DNA of 64,000 nt, taken from a virus. Both the position numbers and the translations under genes were made by a program. Of the stretch, positions 3,474 through 59,548 are shown in pieces; within the stretch, counting starts at the first letter, position 1; each line of letters starts with the position of its first letter. The notes under the pieces were generated by a model, which had not been told where the DNA came from, did not search any database, and saw nothing but the letters and a program-made list of their open reading frames with translations. The stretch lies in IMG/VR virus record IMGVR_UViG_3300026488_000010. One strand, 5' to 3'.

Positions 3474-4745
3474 ATGGCTAAGAAAAAAAATCAGGATGAG
3501 AAGAAAAAATATTTACAAAAAGATGTAAAAGAATTAGCTGCTCATTTGAGAACTATGGGTGCATATGTTCAACAACCTAATCCACAAATTGTTGGGTTAA
3601 GCAAATTTCAAGTAATTGGTTCGCAGGATGCAAAATCATTATATCCTACAATTATGGTACTTTTAAATATTGGATATGACACATTACGAGGCAGAATTTA
3701 CGAACGTAAAATTGTTGGTAAGATTCTAAAAATGCTTCGACACGTTCATTCACTTCAAGGTGATGAAGATTCTATTGATATTGCCGTCTCTAATTTTAAA
3801 GGCGCGATTCGTAATATGGCTAAATCATATGCATCAAGAGAGAAGCTGAAAAAATCAAAGAATGAATTCATAGAGTTCACTACAGAATTTTATGGTGAAT
3901 GTTTTTATAAAATTGTTACATATAAAGGATTATTTGATAATATTTTAACACCTGTTGATGATAAATCATACTATATGTTAAAGTCTGCAATGTACCCATT
4001 ATTTGAAGCGATGACTTGGATGAGTCCACACAATAAAGGATATTCTGCAACAATTGTTGATTATGTTTTTTATAATGATTCTTTTGATGAGAAATATAAA
4101 GATGAAGAGTTTATAGTTTTTGAAGAAATTAATTCTTGTAAAACTAAATGTACAACTATGAATCTATATGAGTTCAAAGAAAAAATTGCGACAAAATATA
4201 TCTTGAATTCGTATGGAACATATTTTGATAAACATGATAATAATAAATCATTTGAAGTTGATCTTATTCTTGGTGGTATGAATGATCGTGGATATGTTAA
4301 AAATCAAATGCTTATTATTGAAGCAATTGTTGAAAATTGGAACAAGTTACCTGATTATATTAAAGGTGCCTTTATATTAGATATGGAAAAACTAGATGAA
4401 AAAATAGCTGAAGAAGTTATAGAACTAGTTGGGGATTCTGATCAAAAAACTAAAGAATGGCAATTAAATAACCTCAAAAGTATTGTATTTGATACAAAGG
4501 TTACTGAAGATCGATTAAAGAAGATGTTAGATTTGGCAGCTGTTCAAAGAAACTCAAAATCAAATGGTATTAAAGTTACATTGAATAGTGGGTATGGTAT
4601 TTACGGAATGGTTACTTGGGTATATGGTAATAATCTAATTGCGAATTCTATCACCTCAGGTGGTAAGATATACGGAATTAAATTATTTCAACAAGTAGCG
4701 AGTAATAAGCTTAGAGTAGAAAGAGCTAAAATTCAAAGAGATTAA
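3474..4745 (+). CDS. Family B DNA polymerase fragment (motif A, fingers, motif B only); piece of a split polymerase
   Basis: GAYVQQP, DAKSLYPTIM (motif A), KVTLNSGYG (motif B); no exonuclease domain and no YGDTDS motif C. Confidence 0.8.
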   Translation: MAKKKNQDEKKKYLQKDVKELAAHLRTMGAYVQQPNPQIVGLSKFQVIGSQDAKSLYPTIMVLLNIGYDTLRGRIYERKIVGKILKMLRHVHSLQGDEDSIDIAVSNFKGAIRNMAKSYASREKLKKSKNEFIEFTTEFYGECFYKIVTYKGLFDNILTPVDDKSYYMLKSAMYPLFEAMTWMSPHNKGYSATIVDYVFYNDSFDEKYKDEEFIVFEEINSCKTKCTTMNLYEFKEKIATKYILNSYGTYFDKHDNNKSFEVDLILGGMNDRGYVKNQMLIIEAIVENWNKLPDYIKGAFILDMEKLDEKIAEEVIELVGDSDQKTKEWQLNNLKSIVFDTKVTEDRLKKMLDLAAVQRNSKSNGIKVTLNSGYGIYGMVTWVYGNNLIANSITSGGKIYGIKLFQQVASNKLRVERAKIQRD

Positions 4746-4770: not shown

Positions 4771-5001
4771 ATGGCAACAATAGAAGAATATCAAGCAAAG
4801 AAATCACAATATGAGGCAGAACTTGAACAAGTTAATAGAGATATAATTATCAAAGAACAATCAATTAAACAGAAGGAAGAGGTGTTTCAACAACAATTTG
4901 GTACAGTTAATATTGATGAGTTAAATGTTATTGCACAGCAGTATCAAGAAGCAATTGCAATTAAAGAACAAGAACTTTTAGCATTAGAGCAATCATCATG
5001 A
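4771..5001 (+). CDS. Small coiled-coil protein
   Basis: Gln/Glu/Lys heptad-rich; AAGGA RBS. Confidence 0.6.
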   Translation: MATIEEYQAKKSQYEAELEQVNRDIIIKEQSIKQKEEVFQQQFGTVNIDELNVIAQQYQEAIAIKEQELLALEQSS

Positions 5002-5207: not shown

Positions 5208-5461
5208 TGGATATCAAAACTAGATTGAATATTGAACAAGAATGTTTTACCATGATTAATAATAAAATGATTAAATGTGTAGTACAATCGATTATTATCA
5301 ATATTTGGAAAACTAATAAAATTGAAATTAAGTACAAACTTAAAGAATCTGATGGTGTTGTATCTTCGCAGTATTTTCACGAGGAAGTTGTTTTTGCAAC
5401 ACATGAAGAACTTACAAATTATTTAACAAGTTCTTTTACTATGGAGGAACTCTGCTCATGA
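5207..5461 (+). CDS. Hypothetical protein
   Basis: Translationally coupled ORF. Confidence 0.55.
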   Translation: MDIKTRLNIEQECFTMINNKMIKCVVQSIIINIWKTNKIEIKYKLKESDGVVSSQYFHEEVVFATHEELTNYLTSSFTMEELCS

Positions 5462-6729
5462 AAGAGATGTTAATTTTTGTAGATACAAAAACTAATAAAA
5501 ATAAATTTTACCAATTAGAACTTATTGGTGATAGAGTTGATGTTGAATATGGCCGAGTAGGTAACTCGACGCCACAGCGAAGATCATATAATGGTGGACA
5601 AAGAATGTATGATAAGAAGCGTGCTGAGAAGATCAAAAAAGGTTATGTCCCATCTGAAATTGATGTTAATATTATTGAAGAATCTTCAAATTCATCAAGT
5701 TCTGGAAATATAATGGATATCGCGATGGCACAAATCAAAACAGATGATGTTTCTAAAAAACTTATCGAAAAGTTAGTTAAGCAAAATATACATAATATTA
5801 CAGCTAATACAAAAATCAAATATGATATCGATACCGGTTATTTTAAAACAGATCTTGGTATAGTTACTGAAAAAGGTGTTACAAAAGCGTTAACAATTCT
5901 TGATAAAATTATGACATATCAATCAAGAATGGGAAAATTAACTGATAAAAAATATGATGCATTCGTTAAATTAAATGAACAATATTTTACAATCATTCCT
6001 ACTAAGATTTCAAATCTTAGAGATTATAAAAACCTTTTAATTACTGTTAATAAAGTAAATGAACAATTAGATATTTGTAATTCATTATCTGATTCATTAA
6101 AAATTATTGATGCTGCAAAAAAAGATATCAAAGATAAAAGTTCAGCAAAAGCTGTTCAAGAAAAAGTATTTGATACAAGTGTTTATGAATTAACAGATAA
6201 AAAAGAATTTACGAGACTCGTAAAATATTTTAATGATTCTAAAAATTCTAGACATGGTCACAACAACTATAAAGTTGAAAAAATATATACGGTTTCACTT
6301 GGAAAGGAAGAATCTGAATATAGAAAAGATTTGGATAATCAGATGGAACTTTTTCATGGAACTAAAATTGCTAATTTATTATCAATTTTAAAAAGTGGAT
6401 TATTGATGCCGAAACAATCACCTGGACAAACAACTGGTTATATGTTTGGTCAAGGTTTATATTTTGCAAGTCAAAGTACAAAATCTTTAAATTATTGTGA
6501 TGGTATGTATTGGAATTCATCAGCTAAACAAGATAAGATATATATGTTTGTTGCTGATATCGCAATGGGTAATTATCAAATTCCTAGTCGGTCAATTTCA
6601 AGAAATCCAGACTCAATTTATGATTCATATTGGGCTAAGCCTGGACAATCAGGAATTCAGAATGATGAGATGATTATTTTTAAAAATAATCAGATACGAT
6701 TAAAATATATATTGGAGATTACAAAATAA
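5458..6729 (+). CDS. Poly(ADP-ribose) polymerase-like protein: WGR domain, helical regulatory region, PARP catalytic domain
   Basis: NKFYQLEL..VEYGRVG (WGR); LFHGT (H300), TGYMFGQGLYFA (Y335), SKSLNYC-like STKSLNYC, NDEMIIF (E404). Confidence 0.9.
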   Translation: MKEMLIFVDTKTNKNKFYQLELIGDRVDVEYGRVGNSTPQRRSYNGGQRMYDKKRAEKIKKGYVPSEIDVNIIEESSNSSSSGNIMDIAMAQIKTDDVSKKLIEKLVKQNIHNITANTKIKYDIDTGYFKTDLGIVTEKGVTKALTILDKIMTYQSRMGKLTDKKYDAFVKLNEQYFTIIPTKISNLRDYKNLLITVNKVNEQLDICNSLSDSLKIIDAAKKDIKDKSSAKAVQEKVFDTSVYELTDKKEFTRLVKYFNDSKNSRHGHNNYKVEKIYTVSLGKEESEYRKDLDNQMELFHGTKIANLLSILKSGLLMPKQSPGQTTGYMFGQGLYFASQSTKSLNYCDGMYWNSSAKQDKIYMFVADIAMGNYQIPSRSISRNPDSIYDSYWAKPGQSGIQNDEMIIFKNNQIRLKYILEITK

Positions 6730-7436: not shown

Positions 7437-7973
7437 ATGAAAAAAATGAAAAATTTAGAAAAAGAAGTAGTTATAAAACTTAAAGCGTTATTTGAGAATG
7501 ATAAAAATGGGACAAGATCCATAAATGTTGGCCTTAAAAATAATGAAACTATTGAGCAGATATTTGCAAGATGTTTTAAACGTCGTCCACACTCAGCGGA
7601 TATTAGATCAATCCAAAAAAGATTTGTTGATGATAAAAATGCACGCAAAGCTTTTGATAATAATGATATGATTCAGGTACTAGAAAAAGAAACTGTTAGA
7701 GTAATTCTTAATAGACATTTATTATATTTTTTAAATGATGTGGTTGATGCAGCTTCAACTGAGAATTCAAATTATACTGAGTTTGCCGAGATCAGTGATT
7801 ATCACTCAGGTGAAAAAGAATGGATTAATGATCTATGGAAAAATGAAATTTCTAAAAAGAAAAGAAAAGTGCTTTTAGGTAAAGCGCAACAACTTAAAGA
7901 TATTATCGGATCATTTCAGATTCAAGTTCATAATTTATCTTTCAAATTTCTTTTATATATCACGAGTAAGTAA
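7437..7973 (+). CDS. Hypothetical protein
   Basis: AGGA RBS; co-oriented. Confidence 0.6.
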   Translation: MKKMKNLEKEVVIKLKALFENDKNGTRSINVGLKNNETIEQIFARCFKRRPHSADIRSIQKRFVDDKNARKAFDNNDMIQVLEKETVRVILNRHLLYFLNDVVDAASTENSNYTEFAEISDYHSGEKEWINDLWKNEISKKKRKVLLGKAQQLKDIIGSFQIQVHNLSFKFLLYITSK

Positions 7974-9010
7974 TGCATTTTGAATTCATTACAATGAAAG
8001 ATCCCCATCTTTCATTGGGATTTATAAATAGAATTCGAACAAGCTATCAGAAGCATATTACAAATAAATTTGATTTTGTTGCTGGTTATTGTAATGAACA
8101 TCAAATAAATACGGCTATTTTTACAGGAGATGTTTTTGATTCAAGTACTGAAGATAAATGGTCATTTAAAAAATATAGAAAAAATAAAAGATTTTTAGAA
8201 TCTTTTAAATTAAAAGGTTCTATTGATTTATTTTCAAATGTTGGAAATCATGATATGTTTCACGGTTATGAAAATTCAGATGATACTATTTTTGGTGAAA
8301 TGGTACATGATGAAATTTTAAATAACATCACTGATCAGCCGCTAGTAATGCAGGATGAAAATATTTATATTAAGGTACAAGGTGTTGATTATTCAAATGA
8401 ACCGAATGAGGTTTTAGATGCAATTCGAGCATTTGATGAAGAATCATATCCTGGTGCAAAAATGTTTAAAGTTGCCGTGCTACATTCAAATGTTACACCA
8501 AAAGATGTTGATCACGTTACTGATTTTACATATGCTAATTTAGTTAGAGATTTTCCAGATATTGATATGTTTATATTCGGACACTACCATGTTGGTTATG
8601 ATACTGTTGTAATACGACGAGAAGACGGCAAAGATTGTCATCTAATAAATAATTGGAACTTTACAAGAGTTGTTAGAGATTATGAAACAGAACTTGATGA
8701 ACACACTCCAGAATTTGAACATGTGTCCATAACATATGATAAAATTCATGATCTTTTTAGTGTTGATTGTAAGACTATAAAAGTACCTTTCGTTCCATAT
8801 GAAGAAGCATTTGCTCAAAAGGCTATTGATATTCTACGTAAAACTAAAGGCGAAATTTTTAAATTTTTTGAAAATTTTAAAATCACAGATATTAAAAAGA
8901 ATGCTACGTCAACAGATGATGATATCGTTGATGATATTATTAAAACAAACTCATATTCTGAAGCTGCAAAATTAAAAGCTTTGGATTATTTAAACAATGC
9001 AAAAAATTAA
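7973..9010 (+). CDS. Mre11/SbcD-like nuclease (T4 gp47-like metallophosphoesterase)
   Basis: DPH, GDVFD, GNHD, LHS, GHYH motifs; an SMC-type ATPase lies two genes downstream. Confidence 0.8.
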   Translation: MHFEFITMKDPHLSLGFINRIRTSYQKHITNKFDFVAGYCNEHQINTAIFTGDVFDSSTEDKWSFKKYRKNKRFLESFKLKGSIDLFSNVGNHDMFHGYENSDDTIFGEMVHDEILNNITDQPLVMQDENIYIKVQGVDYSNEPNEVLDAIRAFDEESYPGAKMFKVAVLHSNVTPKDVDHVTDFTYANLVRDFPDIDMFIFGHYHVGYDTVVIRREDGKDCHLINNWNFTRVVRDYETELDEHTPEFEHVSITYDKIHDLFSVDCKTIKVPFVPYEEAFAQKAIDILRKTKGEIFKFFENFKITDIKKNATSTDDDIVDDIIKTNSYSEAAKLKALDYLNNAKN

Positions 9011-9020: not shown

Positions 9021-11315
9021 ATGATAAGTATAGTACAAACAAAAGTGTTAGATATTTTTAGCACTGATTCAAAAACACTTGGTTATTTAAATAGAAGATT
9101 AGATTTATCAGATGATGAATTTTTAGCAGCTGCTACAAAACAGCGTCCATCAAATAAAAAATTAAAAGATTATATTTCTGATCGTAGAATACATATGGAA
9201 CAATTACCAACAGAAGAAAAAACTACAACTGCAAAAGTTGAAACAGTTGAAACAGTTGAAACAGTTAAAGTTGTTGAGACTTCTGATGAAGAAGTTGATT
9301 CAATGTGTCGTGGTGATAAATTTCTTATTGAAGCCTGCGATATTTTTAAAAATGATAAAGGTACTTTAAAACGTATAATGAAAGGTGTTAATGGTGATCT
9401 ATCAGTTCTTGATATTTTATGGTCAGCCAAAGCTGCTCGTCCAAAAAATAAAAAGATATTATCACTTATTGATGCTTATGAAGCATTACAAGAAAAGAAT
9501 GATAGAATCATCAATAAGGTTAAAGAAGATAAAAAGGTTAAAGAAGATTATGAAACACCTATTGAAACAACCACAATTGATTATGATACAAATGAATATA
9601 TTTTATTAGCTCGTGATGTTTTTAAAAATGATAAAAATACTTTAAAAAAAATAGAAAAAGCGATTGAAAGTAAAAAAACAATAAATGATATTCTATTTAT
9701 TGTTGCATCTGCTCGACCTACAAATGTTAGATATGGTAGATTTTGGAACGGTCCTGGTCATGGTAGAAAAGATTTTCCAAATGATCCAACATATGATCCA
9801 ACCAAATTTGAAAATTCTTCTCCAGAAGATAAAACAAAAGAAACAGTTCCTGATTCATATGCAAACACGGCTGGTAAAATTAATCAAGAAGAAGTTGTTG
9901 AATTAACGGAAGCTGAACAAAAAGAAATTCAAGATAAAAAACGCGCAATTGAAGAAGCCGAACAAGCTGAGCGAGATGAAGCAATGTCAATTGAACAAGA
10001 CGCTCGTGACAAAAGAATGGCTGAACAAACTGCATCTAGAGAGCAGATTGAAGAAGAGTCTGAAGAAGATGGTTCGGATGAAGATATTCAATCTGCTAAA
10101 AATTATCGTCCAAAATTTAATAAATATAGTCATCAAAACACTTACAAAAGTGAGAAGCGATATGATGATATTAAATCTGATGATGATGAAGATTATTCTG
10201 ATCTAGTTGAAGAATTTTCTTTAACACGTGAAGCTGGTAAATATGATGATGTCACAGTATCTGAATCAGATGTATCAGAAAAGTTTGGTTTTGACACAAT
10301 TAATGTAAAGGAAAGTCTTCGAGAGATTTTTCAAAATGATAAAGGTACGCTTCGTGGAATTGAAAAGAAAATTCTTTCAGAAACATTAGATGATGATCTT
10401 TTAGAATATGCATTATCAAAGCGTCCAAAAAATAGAAAACTTTTAAATCTTATTGATGCTGTCTCGAATGAAGCAATCAAGATTGAAGAGATTGAAGATG
10501 AAGAAGATGCTAATAAGATTCACGAAGGTACAGCAGAAGCAACAAAATATGCTGCATATGCAGATATGAAAGTGTCTGAAATACCTTATGTTAAAAACGA
10601 TAATCAAAATATCACTATGTATTTAAATGGTGAGATGGAAGTTATAAATAATGAGCATCCAAATTTTCAAAAGATTACTGAATGTTTAGAAGAAGCTAGA
10701 TGGAACGATGTTTTCCCATTATTAGACTTACGTGGAGCAATTTCAAAATTAGTTTATAAACAATTAGAGTTTAAAAATGATAGTTTATATTTTAATGGTG
10801 AAGAACTTGATGGTGCATTAGTTGAATTTATTATTAATATGGCACAACATGGTGCTGATGATATTCAACCGTTTATGAGATTTTTAAATAAGGTTCAAAA
10901 GAACCCATCTGTTAGAGCACAAAAAGAATTATATGGATTCTTACGTTCTGGTAAAATACCTATTACACAAACAGGTAATATTCTAACATATAAACGTATT
11001 AGAAGTAATTGGAAAGATTGCCATTCAAACACCATGGATAATTCTATTGGAAACGTCGTCCGAATGAAAAGATTATCAGTTGATAACAATTCAAGCAATA
11101 CTTGTAGTACAGGGTTGCATGTATGTTCATACTCATACCTTGGAGCATTTGGTGGAGATCGTATTGTTGTATGTGAAGTTCATCCAAGAGATGTTGTTTC
11201 AATCCCAACGGATTATAATAATTCGAAAATGAGATGTTGTAAATATAAAGTTATAAAAGAAGTGTCGAATAATACTACAGATATATTAGCGTTGAAGCCA
11301 GTATATTTCGATTAA
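9021..11315 (+). CDS. rIIB: RIIB-like protein with a long repeat-containing acidic N-terminal extension
   Basis: C-terminal YKRIR...CSTGLHVCSYSY...VCEVHPRDVVSIPTDYNNSKMRCCKYKV; adjacent to rIIA. Confidence 0.85.
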   Translation: MISIVQTKVLDIFSTDSKTLGYLNRRLDLSDDEFLAAATKQRPSNKKLKDYISDRRIHMEQLPTEEKTTTAKVETVETVETVKVVETSDEEVDSMCRGDKFLIEACDIFKNDKGTLKRIMKGVNGDLSVLDILWSAKAARPKNKKILSLIDAYEALQEKNDRIINKVKEDKKVKEDYETPIETTTIDYDTNEYILLARDVFKNDKNTLKKIEKAIESKKTINDILFIVASARPTNVRYGRFWNGPGHGRKDFPNDPTYDPTKFENSSPEDKTKETVPDSYANTAGKINQEEVVELTEAEQKEIQDKKRAIEEAEQAERDEAMSIEQDARDKRMAEQTASREQIEEESEEDGSDEDIQSAKNYRPKFNKYSHQNTYKSEKRYDDIKSDDDEDYSDLVEEFSLTREAGKYDDVTVSESDVSEKFGFDTINVKESLREIFQNDKGTLRGIEKKILSETLDDDLLEYALSKRPKNRKLLNLIDAVSNEAIKIEEIEDEEDANKIHEGTAEATKYAAYADMKVSEIPYVKNDNQNITMYLNGEMEVINNEHPNFQKITECLEEARWNDVFPLLDLRGAISKLVYKQLEFKNDSLYFNGEELDGALVEFIINMAQHGADDIQPFMRFLNKVQKNPSVRAQKELYGFLRSGKIPITQTGNILTYKRIRSNWKDCHSNTMDNSIGNVVRMKRLSVDNNSSNTCSTGLHVCSYSYLGAFGGDRIVVCEVHPRDVVSIPTDYNNSKMRCCKYKVIKEVSNNTTDILALKPVYFD

Positions 11316-11321
11316 AAATAC

Positions 11322-11367
11322 AAAACGATCTTTATCGATAAAGATCGTTTTAGTTAATATAGAAATA
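11322..11367. promoter_or_regulatory. 30-bp perfect palindrome plus conserved 15-mer GTTAATATAGAAATA
   Basis: AAAACGATCTTTATCGATAAAGATCGTTTT at 11322-11351; 15-mer at 11353-11367. Confidence 0.6.
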
Positions 11368-11411
11368 CAGAAAATCATCTGTATTTCCCAAAAATTAAAA
11401 TAGGAGTTAAG

Positions 11412-14120
11412 ATGATCATTCATGAGACATCAGGAGAAGTAAAAATTTCAGGCGCATTAGAGCAAACAGAGTTCAAGGTTAAGACAGATGATGGTAAAAT
11501 GTTCCACATTCTATCAAATCTATATTCGAATCCACTAGGTGCTGTTGTAAGAGAGTTAAGTACAAATTGTAATGACGGTCACAAAATTGCAGGGTGTGAA
11601 GAAAGATCTTTTGATATCATTCTACCAGGTAGAATGGATATGGGAAATTTTATTAAATTTAGAGATTATGGACCGGGTATGCCACATGATGTTGTAATGT
11701 CTATATTTACAACATTTGGTGAAAGTACTAAATCTGATTCAAATATTGAAACTGGTTGTTTAGGTTTAGGTTCTAAATCGCCATTGGCAATTACAGATTC
11801 ATTTACAGTTACAAGTATTAATGACGGTCGTAAAACTGTTTATACTGTTTCTAAAGATGCACATAAAAGACCTATGCTTACAATGTTTGGTGCAAATGAT
11901 ACAGATGAAGAGAATGGTCTATTAATTACTGTACCATTAACTGATCATTATTCATCTAATGTTGCAAATGAGATTTCTGAGCAACTAAAATTTTTTAAAA
12001 CTAAACCTCGCGTATTACGTGGTGATAAAGTATTGGATTGGGAATGGGAAAATAATGAGAGATTCATTAAGGTTACTGATCAAATATTTATTCGTACAAT
12101 TGGTAATGATAAAGAATCTAATATTATTCAAGGTGAGGTTGGCTATTCGTTTTCAGCATCAGTTCTTAAAAGATCATTAAAAGTTAACTCAGCTATTCCA
12201 TATTTAAAAAATAAAGGTTTAGATGTTTCAGATGAAACAATGTCAATGTTATCAAAATTCTTTGATAATTTTGAATTTAGAATTTATATGCCAATGGGTT
12301 CTGTTTCATTTGCACCTTCGCGTGAAGAGTTAATTTATGATGATGTTACGTCTCAAAATATTCTTAGTCATTTTTTAAATGCTATATCATATATTGATAA
12401 AACATATATTGAGATATATAAAAAAATTGAATGTGATTATCAAATGAAAAAAGTTCGTCAAAATTCACAATCATTGTTTGCAGATGCTAATTATACTGAG
12501 GATCAAAAAAAGTTTTTAAACTTAGTTGGTTTTTCATTTGCATCTGAAACTAGTTCAAATCTAGTTATGTCTAATGGGAAATCACCGAGAACCAATTTGC
12601 CACGATTAGATCGTCTAACATATATTGAAGATATTTTAGAAATGAAAACAATTACTCCTGATCACAGGAGTGTAAAAATATATTCAATGATTAGAAAAGT
12701 GAAGCAGTGGAGAGATAAAACAAAATATGATTTAGAATGTGAAAATATTCATAACTATATTGACGTTAGTGATTACAAGAATATTAAAATTATTTTTATA
12801 AATAAAGACACAAAATTTTATAAAAAGCATCTGACAAATTATATGTTATCACATATGGATGATCGTCGTACAAATGGTGATAATTGGTCAGATATTCCAA
12901 GTGTCTTTTATGTAAAATTAGAACAGGTTACTCAAGCACATATTGATGAAATGGTTGATAAATGTGGATTAACATCTGATAACATATTACCATTTTTAGA
13001 TGTTATTAAAGTGTCGCAAGCATTTATTGATAGTGGTAAAGCGCCAGCAAAATTAGTTCTATCTAAACCAAAAACGTTGCGCCATGCATATTCAAATAGA
13101 ATGACAAGTTCTATTGGTGACTGGACAATGTTTGAGACAAATACTGTTGCAATTAAAGATGAGTTAGAAGGTTGTTATATTGAAACATTTAATAATAAAA
13201 TAACTTTTGATCAAATTAATAGAGTTCCCGGATTAAAAGAAAAATTAGCAAATGTGTTAAAGTATGATGTTTCAAATATTAATCAGATAAAAAATACAAT
13301 CATGCTATTAAATCATATGGGTGCAAACATTCCAACTTTTGAAGTTTATGCTGGACATGAAAAGAATTTTAAAAAGACAAAATTAAAATCATTTTTTGAA
13401 ATGTTAGGCGAAAAGATTGATGATTTAAGAGAACGTAATGGTGTAAGTGCACTATTTTACACTACAAAAACTTTTAATGTTAGCATCGGTAAAACTAGAG
13501 ATACAGAATCATTTTTTGAGAAAATAGATATGATGCATGGTTCTATAAAAATGATTTTAAATAATCATCAAATTAGTGCAAATAAATTAATAAAAACATA
13601 CCATGAAACTGCAGCATTAGCATTGGAAAAATTAAAGAAACCAGATGAGTGCTTATATTTAGATGATCATGAATTATTGCGATTATATAAAATGGAATTA
13701 AATGCAACAACAGGTGATAGTAGAGTTCGCGAATTATTATCAAATTGTGGACTACTAGATTCATTTAATGCCCGTAAAAAGTTTGAAGAAGCATTAGATG
13801 TAAAATTTAATATGGAAGATATTAATATTACAGTTGAAAATTTTGTGAGCAAATACTCTCTTAAAAAAATGTATCAATCACTTGATTATACATATATGTA
13901 TTATTCAAGTTTAAATGCTTCTGAAATGATAAAATTATTTTCAGATATATACACAATAATTAATAAAAAGGATTATATAGATGAGACATTTCCAAATATT
14001 AGTACTTTGATGGTTAAAGAACCTGATCATGTATTAGATAACGATGAAGATGAAACTGATGCAGCAATCAATAGACATGATCTTGATGCAGAGAAAGCAG
14101 AGAAAGCAGTTGCTGAATAA
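11412..14120 (+). CDS. rIIA: RIIA-like protein (N-terminal GHKL ATPase)
   Basis: LYSNPLGAVVRELSTNCND, RDYGPGM, FGESTK, GCLGLGSKSP; paired with rIIB. Confidence 0.85.
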   Translation: MIIHETSGEVKISGALEQTEFKVKTDDGKMFHILSNLYSNPLGAVVRELSTNCNDGHKIAGCEERSFDIILPGRMDMGNFIKFRDYGPGMPHDVVMSIFTTFGESTKSDSNIETGCLGLGSKSPLAITDSFTVTSINDGRKTVYTVSKDAHKRPMLTMFGANDTDEENGLLITVPLTDHYSSNVANEISEQLKFFKTKPRVLRGDKVLDWEWENNERFIKVTDQIFIRTIGNDKESNIIQGEVGYSFSASVLKRSLKVNSAIPYLKNKGLDVSDETMSMLSKFFDNFEFRIYMPMGSVSFAPSREELIYDDVTSQNILSHFLNAISYIDKTYIEIYKKIECDYQMKKVRQNSQSLFADANYTEDQKKFLNLVGFSFASETSSNLVMSNGKSPRTNLPRLDRLTYIEDILEMKTITPDHRSVKIYSMIRKVKQWRDKTKYDLECENIHNYIDVSDYKNIKIIFINKDTKFYKKHLTNYMLSHMDDRRTNGDNWSDIPSVFYVKLEQVTQAHIDEMVDKCGLTSDNILPFLDVIKVSQAFIDSGKAPAKLVLSKPKTLRHAYSNRMTSSIGDWTMFETNTVAIKDELEGCYIETFNNKITFDQINRVPGLKEKLANVLKYDVSNINQIKNTIMLLNHMGANIPTFEVYAGHEKNFKKTKLKSFFEMLGEKIDDLRERNGVSALFYTTKTFNVSIGKTRDTESFFEKIDMMHGSIKMILNNHQISANKLIKTYHETAALALEKLKKPDECLYLDDHELLRLYKMELNATTGDSRVRELLSNCGLLDSFNARKKFEEALDVKFNMEDINITVENFVSKYSLKKMYQSLDYTYMYYSSLNASEMIKLFSDIYTIINKKDYIDETFPNISTLMVKEPDHVLDNDEDETDAAINRHDLDAEKAEKAVAE

Positions 14121-14129
14121 AGGAAAAAT

Positions 14130-16130
14130 ATGATTGATACACAACAAGAGGAATCGTTGGATTCTATTAATTTTAAAATGACTTCTGCGAACCAGAATAT
14201 TTTATTATTGGAAAAAGTTGTGCAACAAGTTCAGTTAGAAATAACTGAGTGCACAACCAATTTAGCATTATTAGATGATGTTAAAAATATTTTAACGATT
14301 CTAAAGAATCAGAAAATGGAAAGTAAAAAAGAGTTTATTTTAACTACTATAAATACAGCATTAGAAGATGTATTTGATCAAGGAATTAAAATAGATATTG
14401 AAGCAACATCTGCTACAAGTTCTGGAAAGATAAATATGAAATATGATATCGTTCTTTATCAGAATGGCATTGAGATGGCACGCAATGAAAAACTTCTTGG
14501 AAACAATGGTGGAGGAGTGTTAAGTTTTATTAGTATATTATTTAAGGTGCTTGTTGGTTATATTTATTCTGATAATAAATTCTTTTTATTTGATGAATCA
14601 ATATCTCAAGTGTCTCCACTATATAGACCAAGGCTTGCACAATTCTTACAAAAGTTTTGTCAAGAATATGATTTCACTTTAGTGCTTGTATCTCAAACAG
14701 ATGATATTGATGAGCATGCAGATCTTGTATATTTATTAGATGGTAAATTTGATAAAAATAATGTACCAGTATTAGAGATTGATAAAATAATTGGAGATTA
14801 TCCACAAGACAAATATGTTTATACGAAAATTGAAAATTTTCAATCTATTGTTCAACTTGAGTTTCGATATAAAGGGTTTACTGTTGTTAGAGGTAATAAT
14901 AATATTGGTAAGTCTGCAAGTTTTAGAGCAGTTAATGCTCTATTGTTTAATACTTTTGATGCTAAGGATCATCCTAGAAAAAAACGTCCTCGTGGTGCAG
15001 AAACAAAAATATTGTTTGGTAAAATGGACTTAGAAGCAGAAGTTGAAAATAATACAATTGCTTTAACATTTAAATCAAATAAGGTTGTATATCAGTTTGA
15101 TGATTTAACATTTACCGGAAAAACACTTGCTTTTGAGAAAGTAAAAGAAAAGGTTGAATCTATTGGATTTAAATATGTTAATTTAAAAGAAACATATAAA
15201 AATTTTAAAGGTAATCTAAAAGATCAAACTGAACGATTAGCGATGACAACACAACATGATGGATTTTATTTAGTTGGTAATAAAGCATCAGAGACTGAAA
15301 AGGTATTTAACTTTTTATTTGATAGTACTGATGTTGCAAATGCAATTGCTCAAGTGCAAATTGATATTTTATCAGATACAAATAAATTAAATGCAGCAAC
15401 TGATAAAATGGTATTGAATAAAAGAGAATTGCAAAAAAATAGATTAACATATGACTTATATGTTTATAAATACTTTAGTCATTTAATAATTGCATATACC
15501 TACGATTTACACGCGATACAAGTTGATAGACATAAAATGTCTACATATAACGATTTAATTGGTTTTATCAATGGTTATGTGATGATTACTAACGGTGTAA
15601 TTGAATTGAATTGTTCTAAGTATGATTTAACCACATTAAAAGATTCGGAAGTTTTTAAAAAATTGGATACTGTAAATTCTATTATATCTCAAATTGAACC
15701 TTTACATATGATATTACATTTTATTAATGAAAAGATTTTATATGAACGAGATAATCATCGACTCGTTGAGATCAATAAATTCTTTGCAGATTTAAATATT
15801 TTAGAATCAGCAAAACATGAGATTGATGCATATCAATATTATATTGATGCAATTGCTAATTATCAATTATTATTAATTCCTGATGATACTAAAGAAGTTC
15901 TAGAATCAAAAGTTCAAAAACTATCTGAAATTATTAGCGAAAAAGATTTTTATGATATGTTATCATCTAAGCTTAATTATTATAAACTTGATCGATTAGA
16001 GATGGATCGATTAGTTGATGAATATCAACGGGTGGCAAATGAATTATCAAATAATGATAAAATATTCGGAATAGAAGAATGTACTTGTTGTAACGGTACA
16101 GGATATAAACATATAGATCAAGGAAATTAA
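14130..16130 (+). CDS. Rad50/SbcC (T4 gp46-like) SMC ATPase, apparently circularly permuted
   Basis: Signature-like NNGGG (~aa 124) and Walker B FLFDE (D155) precede IENFQSI and Walker A GNNNIGKS (aa 255); coiled coil; terminal CTCC (aa 651-654). Confidence 0.8.
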   Translation: MIDTQQEESLDSINFKMTSANQNILLLEKVVQQVQLEITECTTNLALLDDVKNILTILKNQKMESKKEFILTTINTALEDVFDQGIKIDIEATSATSSGKINMKYDIVLYQNGIEMARNEKLLGNNGGGVLSFISILFKVLVGYIYSDNKFFLFDESISQVSPLYRPRLAQFLQKFCQEYDFTLVLVSQTDDIDEHADLVYLLDGKFDKNNVPVLEIDKIIGDYPQDKYVYTKIENFQSIVQLEFRYKGFTVVRGNNNIGKSASFRAVNALLFNTFDAKDHPRKKRPRGAETKILFGKMDLEAEVENNTIALTFKSNKVVYQFDDLTFTGKTLAFEKVKEKVESIGFKYVNLKETYKNFKGNLKDQTERLAMTTQHDGFYLVGNKASETEKVFNFLFDSTDVANAIAQVQIDILSDTNKLNAATDKMVLNKRELQKNRLTYDLYVYKYFSHLIIAYTYDLHAIQVDRHKMSTYNDLIGFINGYVMITNGVIELNCSKYDLTTLKDSEVFKKLDTVNSIISQIEPLHMILHFINEKILYERDNHRLVEINKFFADLNILESAKHEIDAYQYYIDAIANYQLLLIPDDTKEVLESKVQKLSEIISEKDFYDMLSSKLNYYKLDRLEMDRLVDEYQRVANELSNNDKIFGIEECTCCNGTGYKHIDQGN

Positions 16131-16775
16131 ATGTTGAATTCTAAAAAAGTTTTATTTGTATTGGCACATTATGATGATGAATCATTTAGCGCTGGTACAA
16201 TTAAAAAAATGGTGGATGCTGGTATAGAAGTATCAGTATTAATTATATGTGGTAATGGTGCAGTATTAAATGATCCTAGGCGCAATATATTTTCGAAAAA
16301 TATTGAACATGTTTTACAATGTCAAGCAGGTGCAATTGGATATTTCGATTTAACTCTTAATAATTTAAGTAATGATGTTCGAATGAAAATGGAAGAAAGT
16401 GTTAGGGATTATATATATTCATATGCTCCTGATACCATCATTACGAATAATAGTACTGATTTACATAATGATCATAAATTTGTATCTGAGATGGTTCGTA
16501 TCATCTCAAGACCTAGTCAAGAACATAACATAAAAAACCTATATGAATGTTATATTCCAGGAGCAACTGAATATGGTGCAGGTACAAATGAATTCACATG
16601 TATTGTGAATGTTTCAAATGAATTACCATATAGAGACACATGTATAGGTAATTATGATTTACCTCATAGAGGTCTTACTAATCAAGCAGGCGCAAGAATA
16701 ACTGCTCAATATTTTGGAGCATTAAATTCTTGTCATGCTGCAGAGATTTTTAAACCTATATATACAAAACAATAA
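16131..16775 (+). CDS. PIG-L/LmbE family deacetylase
   Basis: VLAHYDDE and DLHNDH metal-binding motifs. Confidence 0.85.
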   Translation: MLNSKKVLFVLAHYDDESFSAGTIKKMVDAGIEVSVLIICGNGAVLNDPRRNIFSKNIEHVLQCQAGAIGYFDLTLNNLSNDVRMKMEESVRDYIYSYAPDTIITNNSTDLHNDHKFVSEMVRIISRPSQEHNIKNLYECYIPGATEYGAGTNEFTCIVNVSNELPYRDTCIGNYDLPHRGLTNQAGARITAQYFGALNSCHAAEIFKPIYTKQ

Positions 16776-16784
16776 AGGATAATA

Positions 16785-17528
16785 ATGTTTGATACTGATA
16801 TAAAAGAAATTATTGATGCTATTGATGAGAATTGTTTTATAACATCTGATGATCATTTTGGTCATAAATCAATATTTGATTTCCAACCTCATCGTAAAAA
16901 TTTAATGTTAAAAGATGGATGTAATATTGAAGGATTATATCCTGATGATTTATTAAAGGCACATGATGACTGGATGGTTAAAAAATTTAATTCGGCTGTA
17001 TCTAAAGATGATGTCACTTTATTTTTGGGTGATTTTGCATTTAAAGGTTTAAACATTGCTAAGAGATTAAACGGTTTTAAAATTTTAATATTGGGAAACC
17101 ATGATAGAAAGGGTGATCAAGTTTATGCACAGGCAGGTTTTGATTATGTAATCAGAGGTTTAGTGATAGAGGATAATCAAAAGATTTTTCATGCAACATC
17201 AAAAGATAAACTATTTAGTGCTTTAGTAAAAAATATAAATGGCTTTAGAATATTATTTAATCATTATCCACCAGATGATAGAGAATACAGACATCAGAAA
17301 GATGACGATGGTAAATTAATTTTATCTAAACCATCACCAATGAATCCTAGAATAGATGAAGCAATTGATGCTTATGATTATTATGATTGTGATTTAGCAA
17401 TGCATGGTCACACACATGGGAAATGTCCAGTTCTGGAAACAACAAATATGCTTAATGTTTGTCGAGATAATAATGATTGTGTACCTGTTAGGATTGGAGA
17501 TATAATGAATGGAGTAAAGTATGATTAA
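16785..17528 (+). CDS. Calcineurin-like metallophosphoesterase
   Basis: SDDHFGH, LGDFAF, GNHD, HYP, HGHTH. Confidence 0.85.
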   Translation: MFDTDIKEIIDAIDENCFITSDDHFGHKSIFDFQPHRKNLMLKDGCNIEGLYPDDLLKAHDDWMVKKFNSAVSKDDVTLFLGDFAFKGLNIAKRLNGFKILILGNHDRKGDQVYAQAGFDYVIRGLVIEDNQKIFHATSKDKLFSALVKNINGFRILFNHYPPDDREYRHQKDDDGKLILSKPSPMNPRIDEAIDAYDYYDCDLAMHGHTHGKCPVLETTNMLNVCRDNNDCVPVRIGDIMNGVKYD

Positions 17529-17973
17529 ACATATAAAAATAGATAGAGATAAATTATTAGATGAAGCAATATTTATGTTATTGGAAGCTCGTCGTAAATG
17601 TCACGAAGGATTTTCACCTACCGCGATAGATAGATTAGATTTAGCAATTGATAAATCAAAAAAAGTTATTGATTATCTAAATGATAAGTTCGATTCGTCA
17701 AATTACCCAACTGCCCAAAAATTGATTGAAGATAATATTATTTCTAAACAATCAAATGGTAAACCAGAAGTTGGTGACCATGTTGGTTTTCATATTAATT
17801 ATGGAAGACAAGGTGGAGTTGATACATTAACTGGTATAGTGAAAGAAATAATCAAAACTCCTAATGATATAGATAATGAATTTGTATATACATATAAGAT
17901 AACATATTATAGAAATGATAGAAAAAACACAGTTACTAGATCACCTAAAGATCTAATATTTTTTAGAGATTAA
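17521..17973 (+). CDS. Hypothetical protein
   Basis: GGAG RBS; overlaps the previous ORF. Confidence 0.55.
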   Translation: MIKHIKIDRDKLLDEAIFMLLEARRKCHEGFSPTAIDRLDLAIDKSKKVIDYLNDKFDSSNYPTAQKLIEDNIISKQSNGKPEVGDHVGFHINYGRQGGVDTLTGIVKEIIKTPNDIDNEFVYTYKITYYRNDRKNTVTRSPKDLIFFRD

Positions 17974-17974
17974 A

Positions 17975-18220
17975 ATGGAATATACTGTTTTAAAATCAAA
18001 AGAATTATATGATAATGATTTGATGGGTTATGGTAAATCTTTAAATGGTAAAGTAAAAGAATTTATAGAAAATGGTTGGGTCCCTCAAGGTGGAGTATCA
18101 ACTATGTACCAGGATACAAAATTAGATTATTCAACACCAAGTGGTGGAATTACAAAATTTAAACCAAATGTTGAATATTTACAAGCAATGATAAAACATT
18201 CAAGAAAGGGTAAATTTTGA
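17975..18220 (+). CDS. DUF1737-like small protein
   Basis: YTVL...LNGKVKEFIENGWVPQGGVS...QAMIK pattern. Confidence 0.55.
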   Translation: MEYTVLKSKELYDNDLMGYGKSLNGKVKEFIENGWVPQGGVSTMYQDTKLDYSTPSGGITKFKPNVEYLQAMIKHSRKGKF

Positions 18221-19230
18221 GTATAACATTAGAACAATCAATGTGTAATCATATTTATGATAAAAATGGTTATTGTAATTTATGTGGTTACATAAACCTT
18301 ATGCATAAACAATTGAATGAAATCGTTTGGGACAAATTAGATATTACATTTGAAAAAGAAAAACGATTAAGAGTTGATTACATATCAGATTTACATACTG
18401 ATTTCTGGGTCGATTGTTTAAATAAACAATCCCCTAAATTTGATATTGAAATCGATGAATTTGTAGACATGCTTAAACCACAAAAAGGTCGCGTATTATT
18501 ATTAGGTGGTGATCAAGGACATTATTTTCAACAAGATTCTGAAGTGATTTTAAAACTTAAAAAATATTATGATCATATTTTGATAGTTATGGGAAATCAT
18601 GATATGTATCTGGAGAGTGGAAAACAAGAGAAAAAGTATAGATGGGATTCAATGAATCGTTTATTTGAGATGGAAACTTTTTGTGATGCACATGATGGAA
18701 TACATTATATGGATGGCAAAATTATAGAAATTGATGAATTTAAATTTGGTGGAATCGGTATGTGGCACGACAACACTTACGGATTAACATTAGGATATTC
18801 TCCAGAAAAAATAGATGAAGCATATTATAAATTAATGAATGATTCGAAATATATTTTTGTTGATGGGAAAAAGAACTATTCTATACCATACGGTTATGGT
18901 GGTGTCGATCACATTAGACATTTTAAACCTTTAGAACGATATAAAAAACAACGTGCGAAATTAGATAGAATGTCTGAATGTCATGTAATGTTAACACATT
19001 ATGGCCCAAAAGTTCCAGAGGAACTACCTTTTGAATTTCAAGATATTGATACATCATATTATTATTTTGATGGTTTAGAAGATATTAAAAGGTTAAAACC
19101 TCATTATTGGGTTCATGGTCACACACATACAACATCACAAGAGTTAGTAGGTGGAACAAAAATTCTCACAAATGCGTTAGGTCGCCCAAGTGAAAATAGA
19201 TACACAATAATAAAATCATTTTATCTTTAG
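18217..19230 (+). CDS. Calcineurin-like metallophosphoesterase
   Basis: SDLH, GGD, GNHD, THYGP, HGHTH; the TTG start is uncertain. Confidence 0.85.
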   Translation: MSITLEQSMCNHIYDKNGYCNLCGYINLMHKQLNEIVWDKLDITFEKEKRLRVDYISDLHTDFWVDCLNKQSPKFDIEIDEFVDMLKPQKGRVLLLGGDQGHYFQQDSEVILKLKKYYDHILIVMGNHDMYLESGKQEKKYRWDSMNRLFEMETFCDAHDGIHYMDGKIIEIDEFKFGGIGMWHDNTYGLTLGYSPEKIDEAYYKLMNDSKYIFVDGKKNYSIPYGYGGVDHIRHFKPLERYKKQRAKLDRMSECHVMLTHYGPKVPEELPFEFQDIDTSYYYFDGLEDIKRLKPHYWVHGHTHTTSQELVGGTKILTNALGRPSENRYTIIKSFYL

Positions 19231-19239
19231 GAGGAATAT

Positions 19240-20067
19240 ATGTTTATTAAATTTTTAGGAAGTGGTTCAGCATTTGTATTAGGTAAAGAAAATTACCAAT
19301 CAAATATATTAATTTCAAAAGAAGTTAAAAATATTGAAAGAGAAATTGTTACAAAACATTTATTATATGATGCAGGCACAACTATTCCTGAGGCTCTAAA
19401 TTATTTTGATATGACGCCACAAGACTTAGATATAGTTTACATTAGCCACTTACATGCTGACCATGCCGGAGGCATTGAATACTTAGCATTCAAGACATAT
19501 TTTGAACAATTTCCATTTGGTCAAAAAAAGATTAATCTTGTTTGTCATAAGTCAATATTATTTAATGGTTGGGATAATACTTGGAAAGGTGGATTACAAA
19601 GTATCCAAGGAATGACAAATTCATTAGAATCTTATTTTTGGACACATTATTTAGAATCGAACGATGAGTTTGATTTTCATGGTACACTTATGAAACCTAT
19701 TCAAACAGTTCATGTTGTTGATGATCGAATGATTAATCCAATTTATGGTCTAATGTTTGATCACGAAAAAGAAACAGTATTTATAACGGGTGATAGTCAA
19801 TTTGCACCAAATCAAATGCTTACATATTTTCACATGGCAGATATTATATTTCACGATTGTGAATTTGCAGAGTACCCAAATTCGGTTCATGCGCAGTTTC
19901 ATCAATTAAAAACATTATCTGAAGATACAAAAAAGAAAATGTGGTTATATCATTATTCATTAGGTGATAAACATATTTGGGAATTGGAACAAGAAGTTTT
20001 AGCTGCAGGGTTTGCAGGTATAGTTAGAAAGGGTCAAGAATTTAAAATAGGAAAAGAAAATGTTTAA
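19240..20067 (+). CDS. apyc1: MBL-fold hydrolase, Apyc1-like (anti-Pycsar cyclic pyrimidine phosphodiesterase)
   Basis: GSGSAF, SHLHADHAGGIE, KKINL, W.N..KGGL, GDSQF, IFHDC, VHA, WLYHY in Apyc1 order. Confidence 0.7.
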   Translation: MFIKFLGSGSAFVLGKENYQSNILISKEVKNIEREIVTKHLLYDAGTTIPEALNYFDMTPQDLDIVYISHLHADHAGGIEYLAFKTYFEQFPFGQKKINLVCHKSILFNGWDNTWKGGLQSIQGMTNSLESYFWTHYLESNDEFDFHGTLMKPIQTVHVVDDRMINPIYGLMFDHEKETVFITGDSQFAPNQMLTYFHMADIIFHDCEFAEYPNSVHAQFHQLKTLSEDTKKKMWLYHYSLGDKHIWELEQEVLAAGFAGIVRKGQEFKIGKENV

Positions 20068-49300: not shown

Positions 49301-50704
49301 ATGGCAAAAGAGATTGGTGACAAACGGGAAAAGAAGCTTAAAATTTCTGTAGAAGCAGTAGAAGCCCAAATTAAATTTCTACTCGCAGAATCCGATCTTG
49401 ATTTTATCGTTGATTCCTTTGTGGGATCAAAATTAGATGCAACATTGAATGAGACTGAAATTCTCAAAAACAATGAATTAAAAAATGAACGAAACTATAA
49501 ATACCAATTTGATAATAAATTGTTTCAAGAAATTTTTGATTTTGTAAAACCAGCTGCCGAAAAAGCAGTTAAAGATGATTTAGATAATCATCTTGCATCT
49601 ATTGGTGAAGATGAAGATTACCTCAGAAAAGTTGAGATATATGATAATATCTTTCAGACAGTTGAACTAACAATGTATAAAACAGGAATTAGTAAAATTA
49701 AACTTATCGCGTTTCACTACCTATTAAAAGGTTTAGAAAAGAAAGCGAATGTTATTATGCAAAATAGAAAAGTAAAAATCATCAGAGGTTATAAAACTTC
49801 AATTGAAATATTTTCACATGAATTATTAATGATCATTGCACAGAATCCAGAATTAGAGAAGTTTACTTTAACTCTTAGATCACTGATTGAACAATGGCTA
49901 ATAAAATACAACAATAAAACTAAAATCGGACAATTCTATTATTCTATTTTAATGATTAACCAAGAACAAGTTGTGGAAAAAATTCTGAGATATATGATGT
50001 TTACAGCAATTAAAAATATGAATCCTATTTATTTAAGGGCAATCTTTAGTACATATGTAACGTTGATTCATAAAAATATTTTCTCTTTTTATGCTCAAAA
50101 ACTTACTGATGTTAAAGTTGGATATTTTAAACAACTTGAATCATTATTTGATGATTCATTATCTGATAATGTTCAGAGAGTACAAGTGAATGAAATGATT
50201 GTTCAAAATAGAATTATGTCTTATGCTATGAAAAATAAAAAATATTTTAAACACAATTATGAATTTTTAATGGATGAATATTCTAGTTCATTTATGGATT
50301 TAAATTATTTTGATATGTTATATTCTTATAAAAAAGAGATACCGATATTGGACTATTTCTTTTATTATTCAAAATTTCTAAAACTTACTAGAAATTCTTT
50401 TAGATCACAATCTAAACTTTATAAAATCAAATCTGAATTCTTTAAAAGTACAAATAAAAAAACTTTAAAAATTTATATTAATGATTTAATTACTGATAGA
50501 TTTTATGAATATTTTTATGAAATATTTAAAGATCGCGAAACAGTTGAAATTATATGTGAAACTATTGGACATAATCTTCTTAAAAAGATTAATCAAAATA
50601 ACTTTGTAACATCTGATTTTGAGAAAATGATTTTATCATCAGATGATTATTTAAATCAATTGTCTCAAATAATTGTTTCAATGCAAAAACTCATGAGTAC
50701 ATAA
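49301..50704 (+). CDS. Large helical hypothetical protein
   Basis: 467-aa ORF abutting the previous stop; no motif recognised. Confidence 0.65.
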   Translation: MAKEIGDKREKKLKISVEAVEAQIKFLLAESDLDFIVDSFVGSKLDATLNETEILKNNELKNERNYKYQFDNKLFQEIFDFVKPAAEKAVKDDLDNHLASIGEDEDYLRKVEIYDNIFQTVELTMYKTGISKIKLIAFHYLLKGLEKKANVIMQNRKVKIIRGYKTSIEIFSHELLMIIAQNPELEKFTLTLRSLIEQWLIKYNNKTKIGQFYYSILMINQEQVVEKILRYMMFTAIKNMNPIYLRAIFSTYVTLIHKNIFSFYAQKLTDVKVGYFKQLESLFDDSLSDNVQRVQVNEMIVQNRIMSYAMKNKKYFKHNYEFLMDEYSSSFMDLNYFDMLYSYKKEIPILDYFFYYSKFLKLTRNSFRSQSKLYKIKSEFFKSTNKKTLKIYINDLITDRFYEYFYEIFKDRETVEIICETIGHNLLKKINQNNFVTSDFEKMILSSDDYLNQLSQIIVSMQKLMST

Positions 50705-50722
50705 GCTCGTGAGTTTTCTTGC
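50686..50722 (+). terminator. Terminator-like hairpin overlapping the stop codon
   Basis: AAAACTCATGAG...CTCGTGAGTTTT followed by CTTGC. Confidence 0.55.
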
Positions 50723-50781
50723 GCTTAGAATTAACATGCCTCTTTTATACAAGACAAACAAATAATTAAAAGGATGTATCA

Positions 50782-57425: not shown

Positions 57426-57434
57426 GGAAATTAA

Positions 57435-59540: not shown

Positions 59541-59548
59541 GGATATGT

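Follow-up and report, generated by a model that had tools for sequence, protein, structure and literature searches.

Swapped head lobes and a C-terminal cysteine pair in a Rad50/SbcC-type ATPase of a giant uncultured phage

Results

The two lobes of the ATPase head are permuted on one chain

We analysed a 64,000-nt stretch of viral DNA, IMG/VR record IMGVR_UViG_3300026488_000010 (the window, by which we mean the whole of that stretch), in which the open reading frame (ORF) at positions 14130-16130 encodes a 666-residue ATP-binding cassette (ABC) ATPase of the Rad50/SbcC type. Alignments and a structural model indicate that this protein is a circular permutation: its head lobes follow each other in swapped order on one chain, a cysteine pair lies at the C-terminus, and the layout is real and conserved. 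We assign the ORF, with a probability of about 0.8, as the Rad50/SbcC (T4 gp46)-type ATPase subunit of a phage Mre11-Rad50 DNA-end-processing complex, in naturally permuted form. The domain identities and their order, the junction, the conservation, the synteny with an Mre11-like gene and the split relatives on which this assignment draws are directly established.

The DNA comes from a hydrothermal-vent metagenome, has a GC content of 27-33% with nearly all transcription on the plus strand, and carries phage genes throughout (rIIA, rIIB, a split family-B polymerase, a Dda-like helicase, ribonucleotide reductase, RNA ligase and NAMPT). The ATPase protein is found on a 286,633-bp contig of a giant uncultured phage. 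Its ORF has an AGGA ribosome-binding site 6 nt 5' of the ATG, and the downstream ORF begins straight after the stop codon.

A preliminary description of this DNA had read the ORF as a short coil followed by signature, Walker B, a Walker A lobe, a long coil and a C-terminal CxxC. Every motif that it quoted is present in that order: NNGGG (aa 125-129), FLFDE (152-156), VSQT (187-190), IENFQS (234-239), GNNNIGKS (255-262) and CTCC (651-654). PHROG 15167 ('ATPase', a 211-position family) matches aa 14-199 (5.6e-11), and Pfam AAA_23, the N-terminal Rad50/SbcC-type P-loop domain, matches aa 233-428 (2.5e-5, 25.5 bits) and scores above its cut-off (32.7 bits) for the homologue in a related IMG/VR record, G003. 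Because the equivalent of the last residue of Rad50 is joined to the equivalent of its first through about six residues, the rearrangement is a circular permutation. Around this junction, P213, L215, I217, G222, Y224, P225, Y229 and Y231 are conserved. The features are listed in Table 1.

Table 1. Features of the permuted ATPase and of its neighbours in the window
Feature	Position (nt)	Strand	Remarks and evidence
Permuted Rad50/SbcC-type ABC ATPase, whole ORF	14130-16130	+	666 aa; profiles, alignment, AlphaFold2 model, structural alignment, census
N-terminal helix aa 10-81, predicted 'returning' coiled-coil strand into C-lobe	14157-14372	+	DSSP of AlphaFold2 model, pLDDT ~76-94
ABC C-lobe aa ~86-222	14385-14795	+	PHROG 15167; aligns to C-half of P. 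furiosus Rad50 (1f2u_B 738-882) and to SMC C-halves; column census
C-lobe: signature NGGG aa 126-129	14505-14516	+	
C-lobe: Walker B FLFDE aa 152-156	14583-14597	+	
C-lobe: D-loop ESISQVS; H-loop position Q189	14694-14696 (Q189)	+	
Junction aa ~222-228, ~6 residues, last-residue to first-residue equivalent of Rad50	14796-14813	+	Structural-alignment ends, invariant columns, BLASTP ends to split pieces
ABC N-lobe aa ~229-399	14814-15326	+	Pfam AAA_23; aligns to residues 1-140 of SMC1A, SMC, RecN and Rad50 heads; invariant columns
N-lobe: NFQS aa 236-239; Walker A GNNNIGKS aa 255-262	14892-14915 (Walker A)	+	
N-lobe: Q-loop TTQHDG aa 373-378 (Q375)	15246-15263	+	
Long helical arm aa 400-640, predicted breaks 505-506, 520-522, 582-587	15327-16049	+	Model and alignment; little conserved, length varies among homologues
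C-terminal CxxCxGxG aa 651-658, zinc-hook-like cysteine pair	16080-16103	+	C651, C654 and G658 invariant; alignment, motif census
Mre11/SbcD-like nuclease, predicted partner	7973-9010	+	345 aa; alignment A2, profile matches, hhalign, synteny
rIIB	9021-11315	+	PHROG match; rIIB and rIIA E-values 4.5e-73 and 3.7e-83
rIIA	11412-14120	+	PHROG match; context only
Helix-loop-helix protein, candidate third subunit	4771-5001	+	76 aa; homologues near Mre11-like gene

The permuted order is conserved in independent assemblies

A search of 5.8 billion proteins returned 198 relatives at E <= 0.001. The best 120 of the 198, mostly 650-760 aa long, come from JGI, ENA, NCBI and Logan assemblies, lie on contigs of up to 315 kb and have the uninterrupted permuted order in common, down to 39% identity; the arrangement sought in other phages is thereby represented by about 200 homologues from independent assemblies. 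In an end-to-end alignment of 20 relatives with 39-85% identity (A1), aa 48-405, which span both lobes and the junction, are very strongly conserved, and the arm is poorly conserved and of variable length.

A C-lobe gene and an adjoining N-lobe gene could appear as one ORF through misassembly, a frameshift error or a missed stop codon, and the existence of relatives in which the two parts are separate genes makes such a false join conceivable. The independent homologues and the conserved junction residues contradict the misassembly that the preliminary description had named as a possible refutation, and the support for the junction that it wanted from reads comes at the level of contigs: a Logan contig of the likely source run covers the ATPase gene with 0 differences, and a 395-nt contig that belongs to a different study runs across the lobe junction (nt 14473-14867) and shows 5 differences. 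Moreover, none of the split phages examined has the two pieces side by side: they are ordered N-then-C in one of them (L009) and lie more than 100 kb apart in another (Tunturi_5). We regard an artefact as exceedingly improbable.

Positions 13900-16400 are complete in one hydrothermal-vent metagenome run, with short contigs of 85-99% identity in 3 runs from 2 further studies; no RNA dataset is among the sequencing runs matched to this interval. Cultured phages gave no megablast match to positions 11000-19500, and the sole tblastn match of the ATPase among them is Tunturi_5 gp14, over the C-lobe part.

Both halves resemble parts of one Rad50/SMC-type head

From the family alignment, AlphaFold2 gave a model with a mean predicted local distance difference test score (pLDDT) of 72.5. 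A helix (aa 10-81) precedes an alpha/beta domain (86-222), whose strands lead straight into a second alpha/beta domain (229-396); helices 400-504, 507-519, 523-581 and 588-640 follow, and a small beta-hairpin surrounds the cysteines. In the PDB, Foldseek ranks the C-terminal halves of Smc, cohesin and Rad50 heads highest (E down to 8e-5). Model residues 60-221 superimpose on residues 738-882 of Pyrococcus furiosus Rad50, the latter being its last residue (143/145 aligned, root-mean-square deviation 2.7, Z 9.6), and residues 227-376 on residues 1/2 to 138-141 of the SMC1A, Smc, RecN and Rad50 heads (root-mean-square deviation 2.8-4.0, Z 7.9-9.9). The model thus supports a view of the two halves as parts of one Rad50/SMC-type head, joined end to start, and not as two unrelated ATPases, which the preliminary description had held up as the other outcome. 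Within the chain the two lobes would pack against each other, as the six-residue junction and its conservation suggest. Helices 5-81 and 400-~489 are predicted to align jointly to antiparallel two-helix stalks (V-ATPase stalk subunits, model 5 to 481-489).

Catalytic residues are retained, with a glycine-rich signature

Both the signature glycines G127-G129 and the Walker B pair D155-E156 are invariant in 136 full-length fused homologues and in 34 split C-pieces, and K261/S262 of Walker A, Q375 of the Q-loop, C651 and C654 are invariant in the 20 sequences of A1; agreement of this kind goes far beyond chance. The signature is atypical, as had been claimed: it reads NGGG in place of S-G-G, and the signature Ser of canonical Rad50 is Gly across the family. 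GGG is preceded by N in fused proteins and by F, H or Y in split proteins. The replacement of the H-switch (VSQT) is likewise real, with Q189 at the H-loop, and is confined to a subclade; this column holds Q in 58/136 and H in 78/136 fused proteins, and H in all 34 split C-pieces. Because His is found in all of the latter and in 78 of the former, Q189 is, judged from these sequences, a derived subclade trait, and the ancestral enzyme was presumably active.

These features also bear on a possibility that we consider unlikely, namely that the protein belongs to the same family but acts mainly as a structural tether, either as a slow or non-hydrolysing ATP-dependent clamp or with lobes that pair between chains. 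The Gln at the H-loop and the loss of the signature Ser would suit a clamp, and pairing between chains would be compatible with the split relatives, which demonstrate that the lobes can assemble from separate chains, and with in-chain packing that is deduced rather than read from coordinates. However, the Walker A Lys and Ser, the Q-loop Gln and the Walker B Asp-Glu are retained as described above, the widespread His points to an active ancestor, and a link of about six residues between the equivalents of the last and first residues of Rad50 fits a head that forms within one chain.

An Mre11-like gene is syntenic with the ATPase gene

The 345-residue protein encoded upstream of the ATPase has the phosphoesterase motifs of Mre11 intact (D10, H12, D53, N92-H93, H171, H204 and H206), all of them invariant in 6 orthologues (alignment A2). 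Its profile finds archaeal Mre11 (5e-8) and Escherichia coli SbcD (1.4e-3) in the PDB, and hhalign relates its family to T4 gp47 with a probability of 93.7%. Two other metallophosphoesterases in the window (16785-17528 and 18217-19230) were considered as the partner and rejected; they match the generic PHROGs 547 and 1649, and the Mre11 motifs and the matches to Mre11, SbcD and gp47 are those of the protein at 7973-9010.

The gene order Mre11-rIIB-rIIA-ATPase recurs in four lineages (the window, L002, L004 and L007), down to 39% identity. In L008 the rII block is absent and the Mre11-like gene is followed by a 104-aa ORF and then by the ATPase; split relatives also lack the rII block and have the N-piece two genes from the Mre11-like gene. 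Synteny with Mre11 thus extends to 5 of the 7 fused lineages and to the split loci, and the Mre11-like gene precedes that of the ATPase just as 47 precedes 46 in T4. All of 4 related phage records have one Mre11-like gene each, and their sole AAA_23 or SMC_N match is the permuted ATPase (the split N-piece in G004). SbcCD is reported to be practically universal in jumbo phages (PMC7824862). Given these counts and the reported spread of SbcCD, the simplest reading is that the permuted gene is the SbcC of these phages.

Complex prediction for ATPase aa 1-480 with the Mre11-like protein gave a score of 0.48, compared with 0.00 for the best of 3 controls; at least 80% of the contacts recur between runs, and the pLDDT of the partner is 81. 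The mark that this prediction passed is reached by 58/80 solved complexes and 2/110 mismatched pairs, and at scores of 0.60 or below by 7/80 solved complexes and both mismatches. Because Mre11-Rad50 complexes have already been solved, the pass may reflect likeness only, and we take the predicted complex as weak support.

Observations that weigh against the assignment

Several findings speak against a Rad50 identity. The AAA_23 score of the window ATPase lies 1.5 bits under the 27-bit cut-off, hhalign of the family with T4 gp46 aligns the P-loop alone (probability 12%), and the family profile finds no Rad50 by sequence in the PDB. (Searches of PDB sequences with phmmer and with profiles returned just weak Walker B matches to ABC transporters and coiled-coil noise.) Nor does structure alone separate Rad50, SMC, cohesin and RecN, whose Z-scores are within 1 of each other. 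To these add the NGGG signature and the Gln at the H-loop, which might slow hydrolysis. L005 and L006 have no Mre11-like gene within 10 kb of the ATPase, and the count of one gene per record covers four related IMG/VR records, three of which are incomplete, with the window's own whole genome outside it. In the arm, pLDDT is 50-70 over aa 500-600, and the returning strand can pair with only about one third of the outgoing strand.

The P-loop-limited match to gp46, the indiscriminate fold scores and the two lineages without a nearby Mre11-like gene would all be compatible with an SMC-like ABC ATPase that has the same fold but is not a functional Rad50, and whose link to Mre11 is incidental. Such a protein might act in another process, with the adjacent GHKL-type ATPase rIIA and rIIB or in a conflict system, and rIIB and rIIA do stand between the Mre11-like gene and the ATPase in four lineages. 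The absence of the rII block in L008, where the Mre11-like gene is one small ORF upstream, and in the split relatives argues against this explanation, as do the Rad50-style hook motif CP[TLV]CG of the split relatives, the lone SMC-like gene of each related record in phages expected to encode SbcCD and, weakly, the predicted complex. We judge it improbable and retain the assignment as a Rad50/SbcC-type subunit.

Fold comparison places SMC1A/SMC3 cohesin, bacterial Smc, RecN and GajA/OLD at about the same level as Rad50 in the head lobes (Z 8-10). In contrast to SMC and RecN, the arm of the window ATPase ends in a cysteine pair, the partner gene encodes an Mre11-type phosphoesterase, and no kleisin-type neighbour was seen. 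No Pfam match to an SMC hinge was obtained; aa 400-640 are predicted to be all-helical and precede a 16-residue Cys-containing tail. An ABC transporter ATPase, as implied by the JGI label 'EcfA2' on two homologues, was rejected in view of the reversed order, the long coiled coils and a neighbourhood with no membrane partner; EcfA and OpuCA align weakly, to the Walker B region alone.

Two-gene relatives are split just after the hook

A split form is present in L009 (record G004, IMG/VR UViG_3300005095_000072), a complete 118-kb phage with terminal repeats. Its 404-aa N-piece starts the N-lobe at residue 3, continues into a coil and ends with CPTCG and 15 further residues. An Mre11-like nuclease is encoded two genes downstream of the N-piece, and a 231-aa protein of coil and C-lobe, the C-piece, 5.6 kb beyond. 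By BLASTP, aa 2-190 of the C-piece match aa 9-201 of the fused protein (1e-26), the N-piece aligns from its residue 3 onward to fused aa 226-438 (2e-13), and the Mre11-like proteins of L009 and the window match over their full length (1e-29).

An exhaustive profile census of 1.84 billion representatives found ~52 fused clusters at E < 1e-30 and beneath them only two classes: C-pieces of 190-235 aa that cover profile positions ~8-203, and N-pieces of 345-500 aa that cover positions ~231-675 from about their own residue 5. Cultured phages with a C-piece are Tunturiibacter phage Tunturi_5 (gp14), Microbacterium phage Magritte (gp2) and Bacillus phage 0305phi8-36 (gp5); in L016 and L017 no C-piece was found within 10 kb of the N-piece. 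Split pieces carry annotation labels only ('ATPase', 'exonuclease', 'chromosome segregation ATPase'). The N-piece hook motif is often CP[TLV]CG, as in T4 gp46, where CPTC lies at 288 of 560. This position, together with N-pieces that end right after CxxC, places the cut just after the hook.

In Bacillus phage 0305phi8-36 (L019), gp8 ('DNA repair exo subunit 2', 769 aa) is encoded three genes from gp5 (236 aa, 'chromosome segregation ATPase', coil and C-lobe). We take gp8 to be the Mre11/Rad50 fusion protein described for this phage. In that fusion protein, one P-loop segment of SbcC 'was not observed' (PMC3175470). The gp5 protein looks like the missing SbcC segment.

In an unrooted tree built from the N-lobes of 49 fused and 48 split proteins, a branch with an SH-aLRT value of 98 separates the two forms, with two exceptions. 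The exceptions are P0196, on a very long branch, and P0167, a 446-aa protein near-identical in its N-lobe to the 754-aa fused protein P0158; the latter exception probably reflects a gene call that was cut short or a secondary fission within the fused clade. P0167 is N-lobe-only with a hydrophobic tail and without CxxC, and its 90% cluster includes a 682-aa member.

Outside the fused clade, the closest relatives have the gene in two pieces; the permuted gene therefore probably arose by fission just after the hook and a later fusion that placed the C-piece ahead of the N-piece, a direction that we infer with an unrooted tree. This order of events is favoured because split forms greatly outnumber fused ones and have a much wider distribution, because the fused forms look like one clade, and because the pieces are non-adjacent in the split phages examined, unlike the products of a recent fission of a C-N gene. 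Permutation by tandem duplication with later fission is a possible alternative. The preliminary description had a gene opened near the hook and its lobes joined: the site near the hook stands, with 53 of 55 split N-pieces ending a few residues after CxxC, but fission and fusion in reverse order are more probable than the direct opening of one gene.

The arm and its terminal cysteines

The cysteine pair is conserved in most members of the family. CxxC lies within the last 30 residues of 133/136 fused proteins, and 31 of the 53 N-pieces that bear it are without any Cys or His beyond it, with tails as short as 4 residues (CPTCGKPL, CPLCERPF). Because each such chain gives just two ligands, at least two chains would be needed for a tetrahedral zinc site.

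The coil arms are very unequal, as proposed: in the model, helix 10-81 provides a returning strand of 72 aa, set against ~240 aa in the outgoing helices, and the 1:3 asymmetry is present in the split form too. The distal 150 aa of the arm are modelled with low confidence and have no evident partner strand. An arm that runs up, down and up again would fit the predicted helix breaks and would place the terminal cysteines at the distal tip. Arm insertions, two of ~30 aa in one clade and one in other clades, were examined for paired inserts as a sign of a fold-back hairpin. Tentatively, and with less than an even chance, we suggest that the arm is not a folded-back hairpin but is paired in-chain over its proximal third and completed between molecules over its distal two thirds, through a second chain's distal arm, the conserved ~80-aa protein at 4771-5001 or both. 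If so, the complex would be an obligate multi-chain assembly with a zinc-tipped arm whose apex is not covalently closed, a new build of SMC-like machine common to the fused clade and the much larger split phage Rad50 family.

The 76-aa helix-loop-helix protein, which had been put forward as a coiled coil that may complete the arm, belongs to a family of ~80 aa with a conserved FGT motif (FGT[TV][DN]). Members lie directly upstream of the Mre11-like gene in L002 (1395-1643), L004 (3342-3584) and G001 (72104-72316), and ~3-5 kb upstream of it in the window and, by position, in G002. The family is present in all three fused-type records searched (G001-G003), whereas a search of G004, the split-type record, did not detect it; a 95-aa coil ORF in L009, tried as a homologue, is unrelated. 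Pfam gave no family above cut-off and PHROGs none for the 76-aa protein, with one marginal PHROG match (0.0093) for the L002 homologue. From this distribution the protein is a reasonable candidate subunit. It is too short to be the missing strand, and with two short helices it could not stand in for the entire absent arm.

Discussion

Comparison with canonical and split forms

Like the canonical Rad50/SbcC-Mre11/SbcD systems (P. furiosus, E. coli SbcCD, T4 gp46/gp47), the window encodes a two-lobed ABC head in which Walker A, Q-loop, signature, Walker B, D-loop and the H-loop position are present, a predicted antiparallel coiled coil that emerges from the head with a CxxC at the far end of the outgoing strand, and a syntenic, motif-intact Mre11/SbcD-like gene in the 47-before-46 order of T4. 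Unlike in those systems, the lobe order is swapped, the termini lie in the coiled coil and not at the head, the hook is the C-terminus and not the apex of a hairpin, the strands are of very different length (~72 aa returning, ~240 aa outgoing), the signature is NGGG with a Gln at the H-loop, and sequence similarity to gp46 is limited to the P-loop. By the linear order of N-lobe, coil, CxxC, coil and C-lobe, the window ATPase is a topological variant and not a canonical member.

Nearest by profile score are the split phage Rad50 proteins (L009, Tunturi_5 gp14, 0305phi8-36 gp5 and Magritte gp2), which share GGGV, DES..VS, NFQS, the terminal CxxC, the unequal arms and the same type of Mre11-like partner. 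Their pieces, however, are separate polypeptides from genes kilobases apart, whereas here the C-piece is fused before the N-piece. Permuted or split Rad50, SbcC or SMC proteins are not described in the full-text literature searched; prior mention in the classification of Krishnan et al. (NAR 2020) is possible.

A model for the permuted complex

ATPase activity, zinc binding, dimerisation and Mre11 binding enter the following model as inferences from these likenesses. The chain would start inside the coiled coil, pass through the 72-residue returning helix into the C-lobe and, after the short link, through the N-lobe into an outgoing strand of ~240 residues with the CxxC pair at its end. The two lobes would fold into one ABC head, and two heads would sandwich two ATP molecules, with the Walker A of one head facing the signature of its partner. 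A dimer of the Mre11-like nuclease (7973-9010) would sit at the base of the coil, and the terminal cysteine pairs of two chains would share one zinc, as in the Rad50 hook. Such a complex would resect or open DNA ends for recombination-dependent replication. Its ATPase gene would have originated when a Rad50 gene was split just after the hook and the coil and C-lobe gene was fused ahead of the N-lobe, coil and hook gene.

Models of Rad50/SMC-like proteins assume a continuous hairpin arm with a covalently closed apex, either hook or hinge. In the family described here, a chain severed directly behind the hook can still be conserved, as in the widespread split phage forms, and its pieces can be linked again at the head in the opposite order. 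Because the split forms are cut after the hook and the fused forms re-joined at the head, covalent connections at apex and head appear interchangeable. A natural single-chain head with an 'open-apex' arm and close two-gene versions of it are material for testing the roles of hook, returning strand and arm length in ATP-driven DNA clamping and Mre11 activation. The finding also corrects annotation: proteins of this family are labelled hypothetical, 'EcfA2', 'RecN', 'SMC' or 'ATPase', and phage genomes that encode them would be scored as without SbcC.

Other genes in the window

Positions 49301-63951 hold a run of large ORFs (467, 450, 1680, 701, 439 and 385 aa) for which neither Pfam nor PHROG gave a match; they may be virion proteins or others specific to giant phages. 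ORF 3474-4745 corresponds to part of a family-B DNA polymerase (the central region of PHROG 262 alone) and stands by itself, as it does in L004, L005 and L006 (49-53% identity). Between the small coil gene and the Mre11-like gene lies ORF 5458-6729 (423 aa), which matches PHROG 23333 'polymerase' (8.6e-48), is 70% identical in L007 and reads as PARP-like from sequence. rIIA gave weak GHKL-ATPase matches. Directly downstream of the ATPase, positions 16131-20067 encode a PIG-L-like deacetylase (7.3e-11), the two generic metallophosphoesterases and an Apyc1-like protein of the metallo-beta-lactamase fold (PF23023, 8.2e-21, above cut-off). In L004 and L007, too, the PIG-L gene comes after the ATPase.

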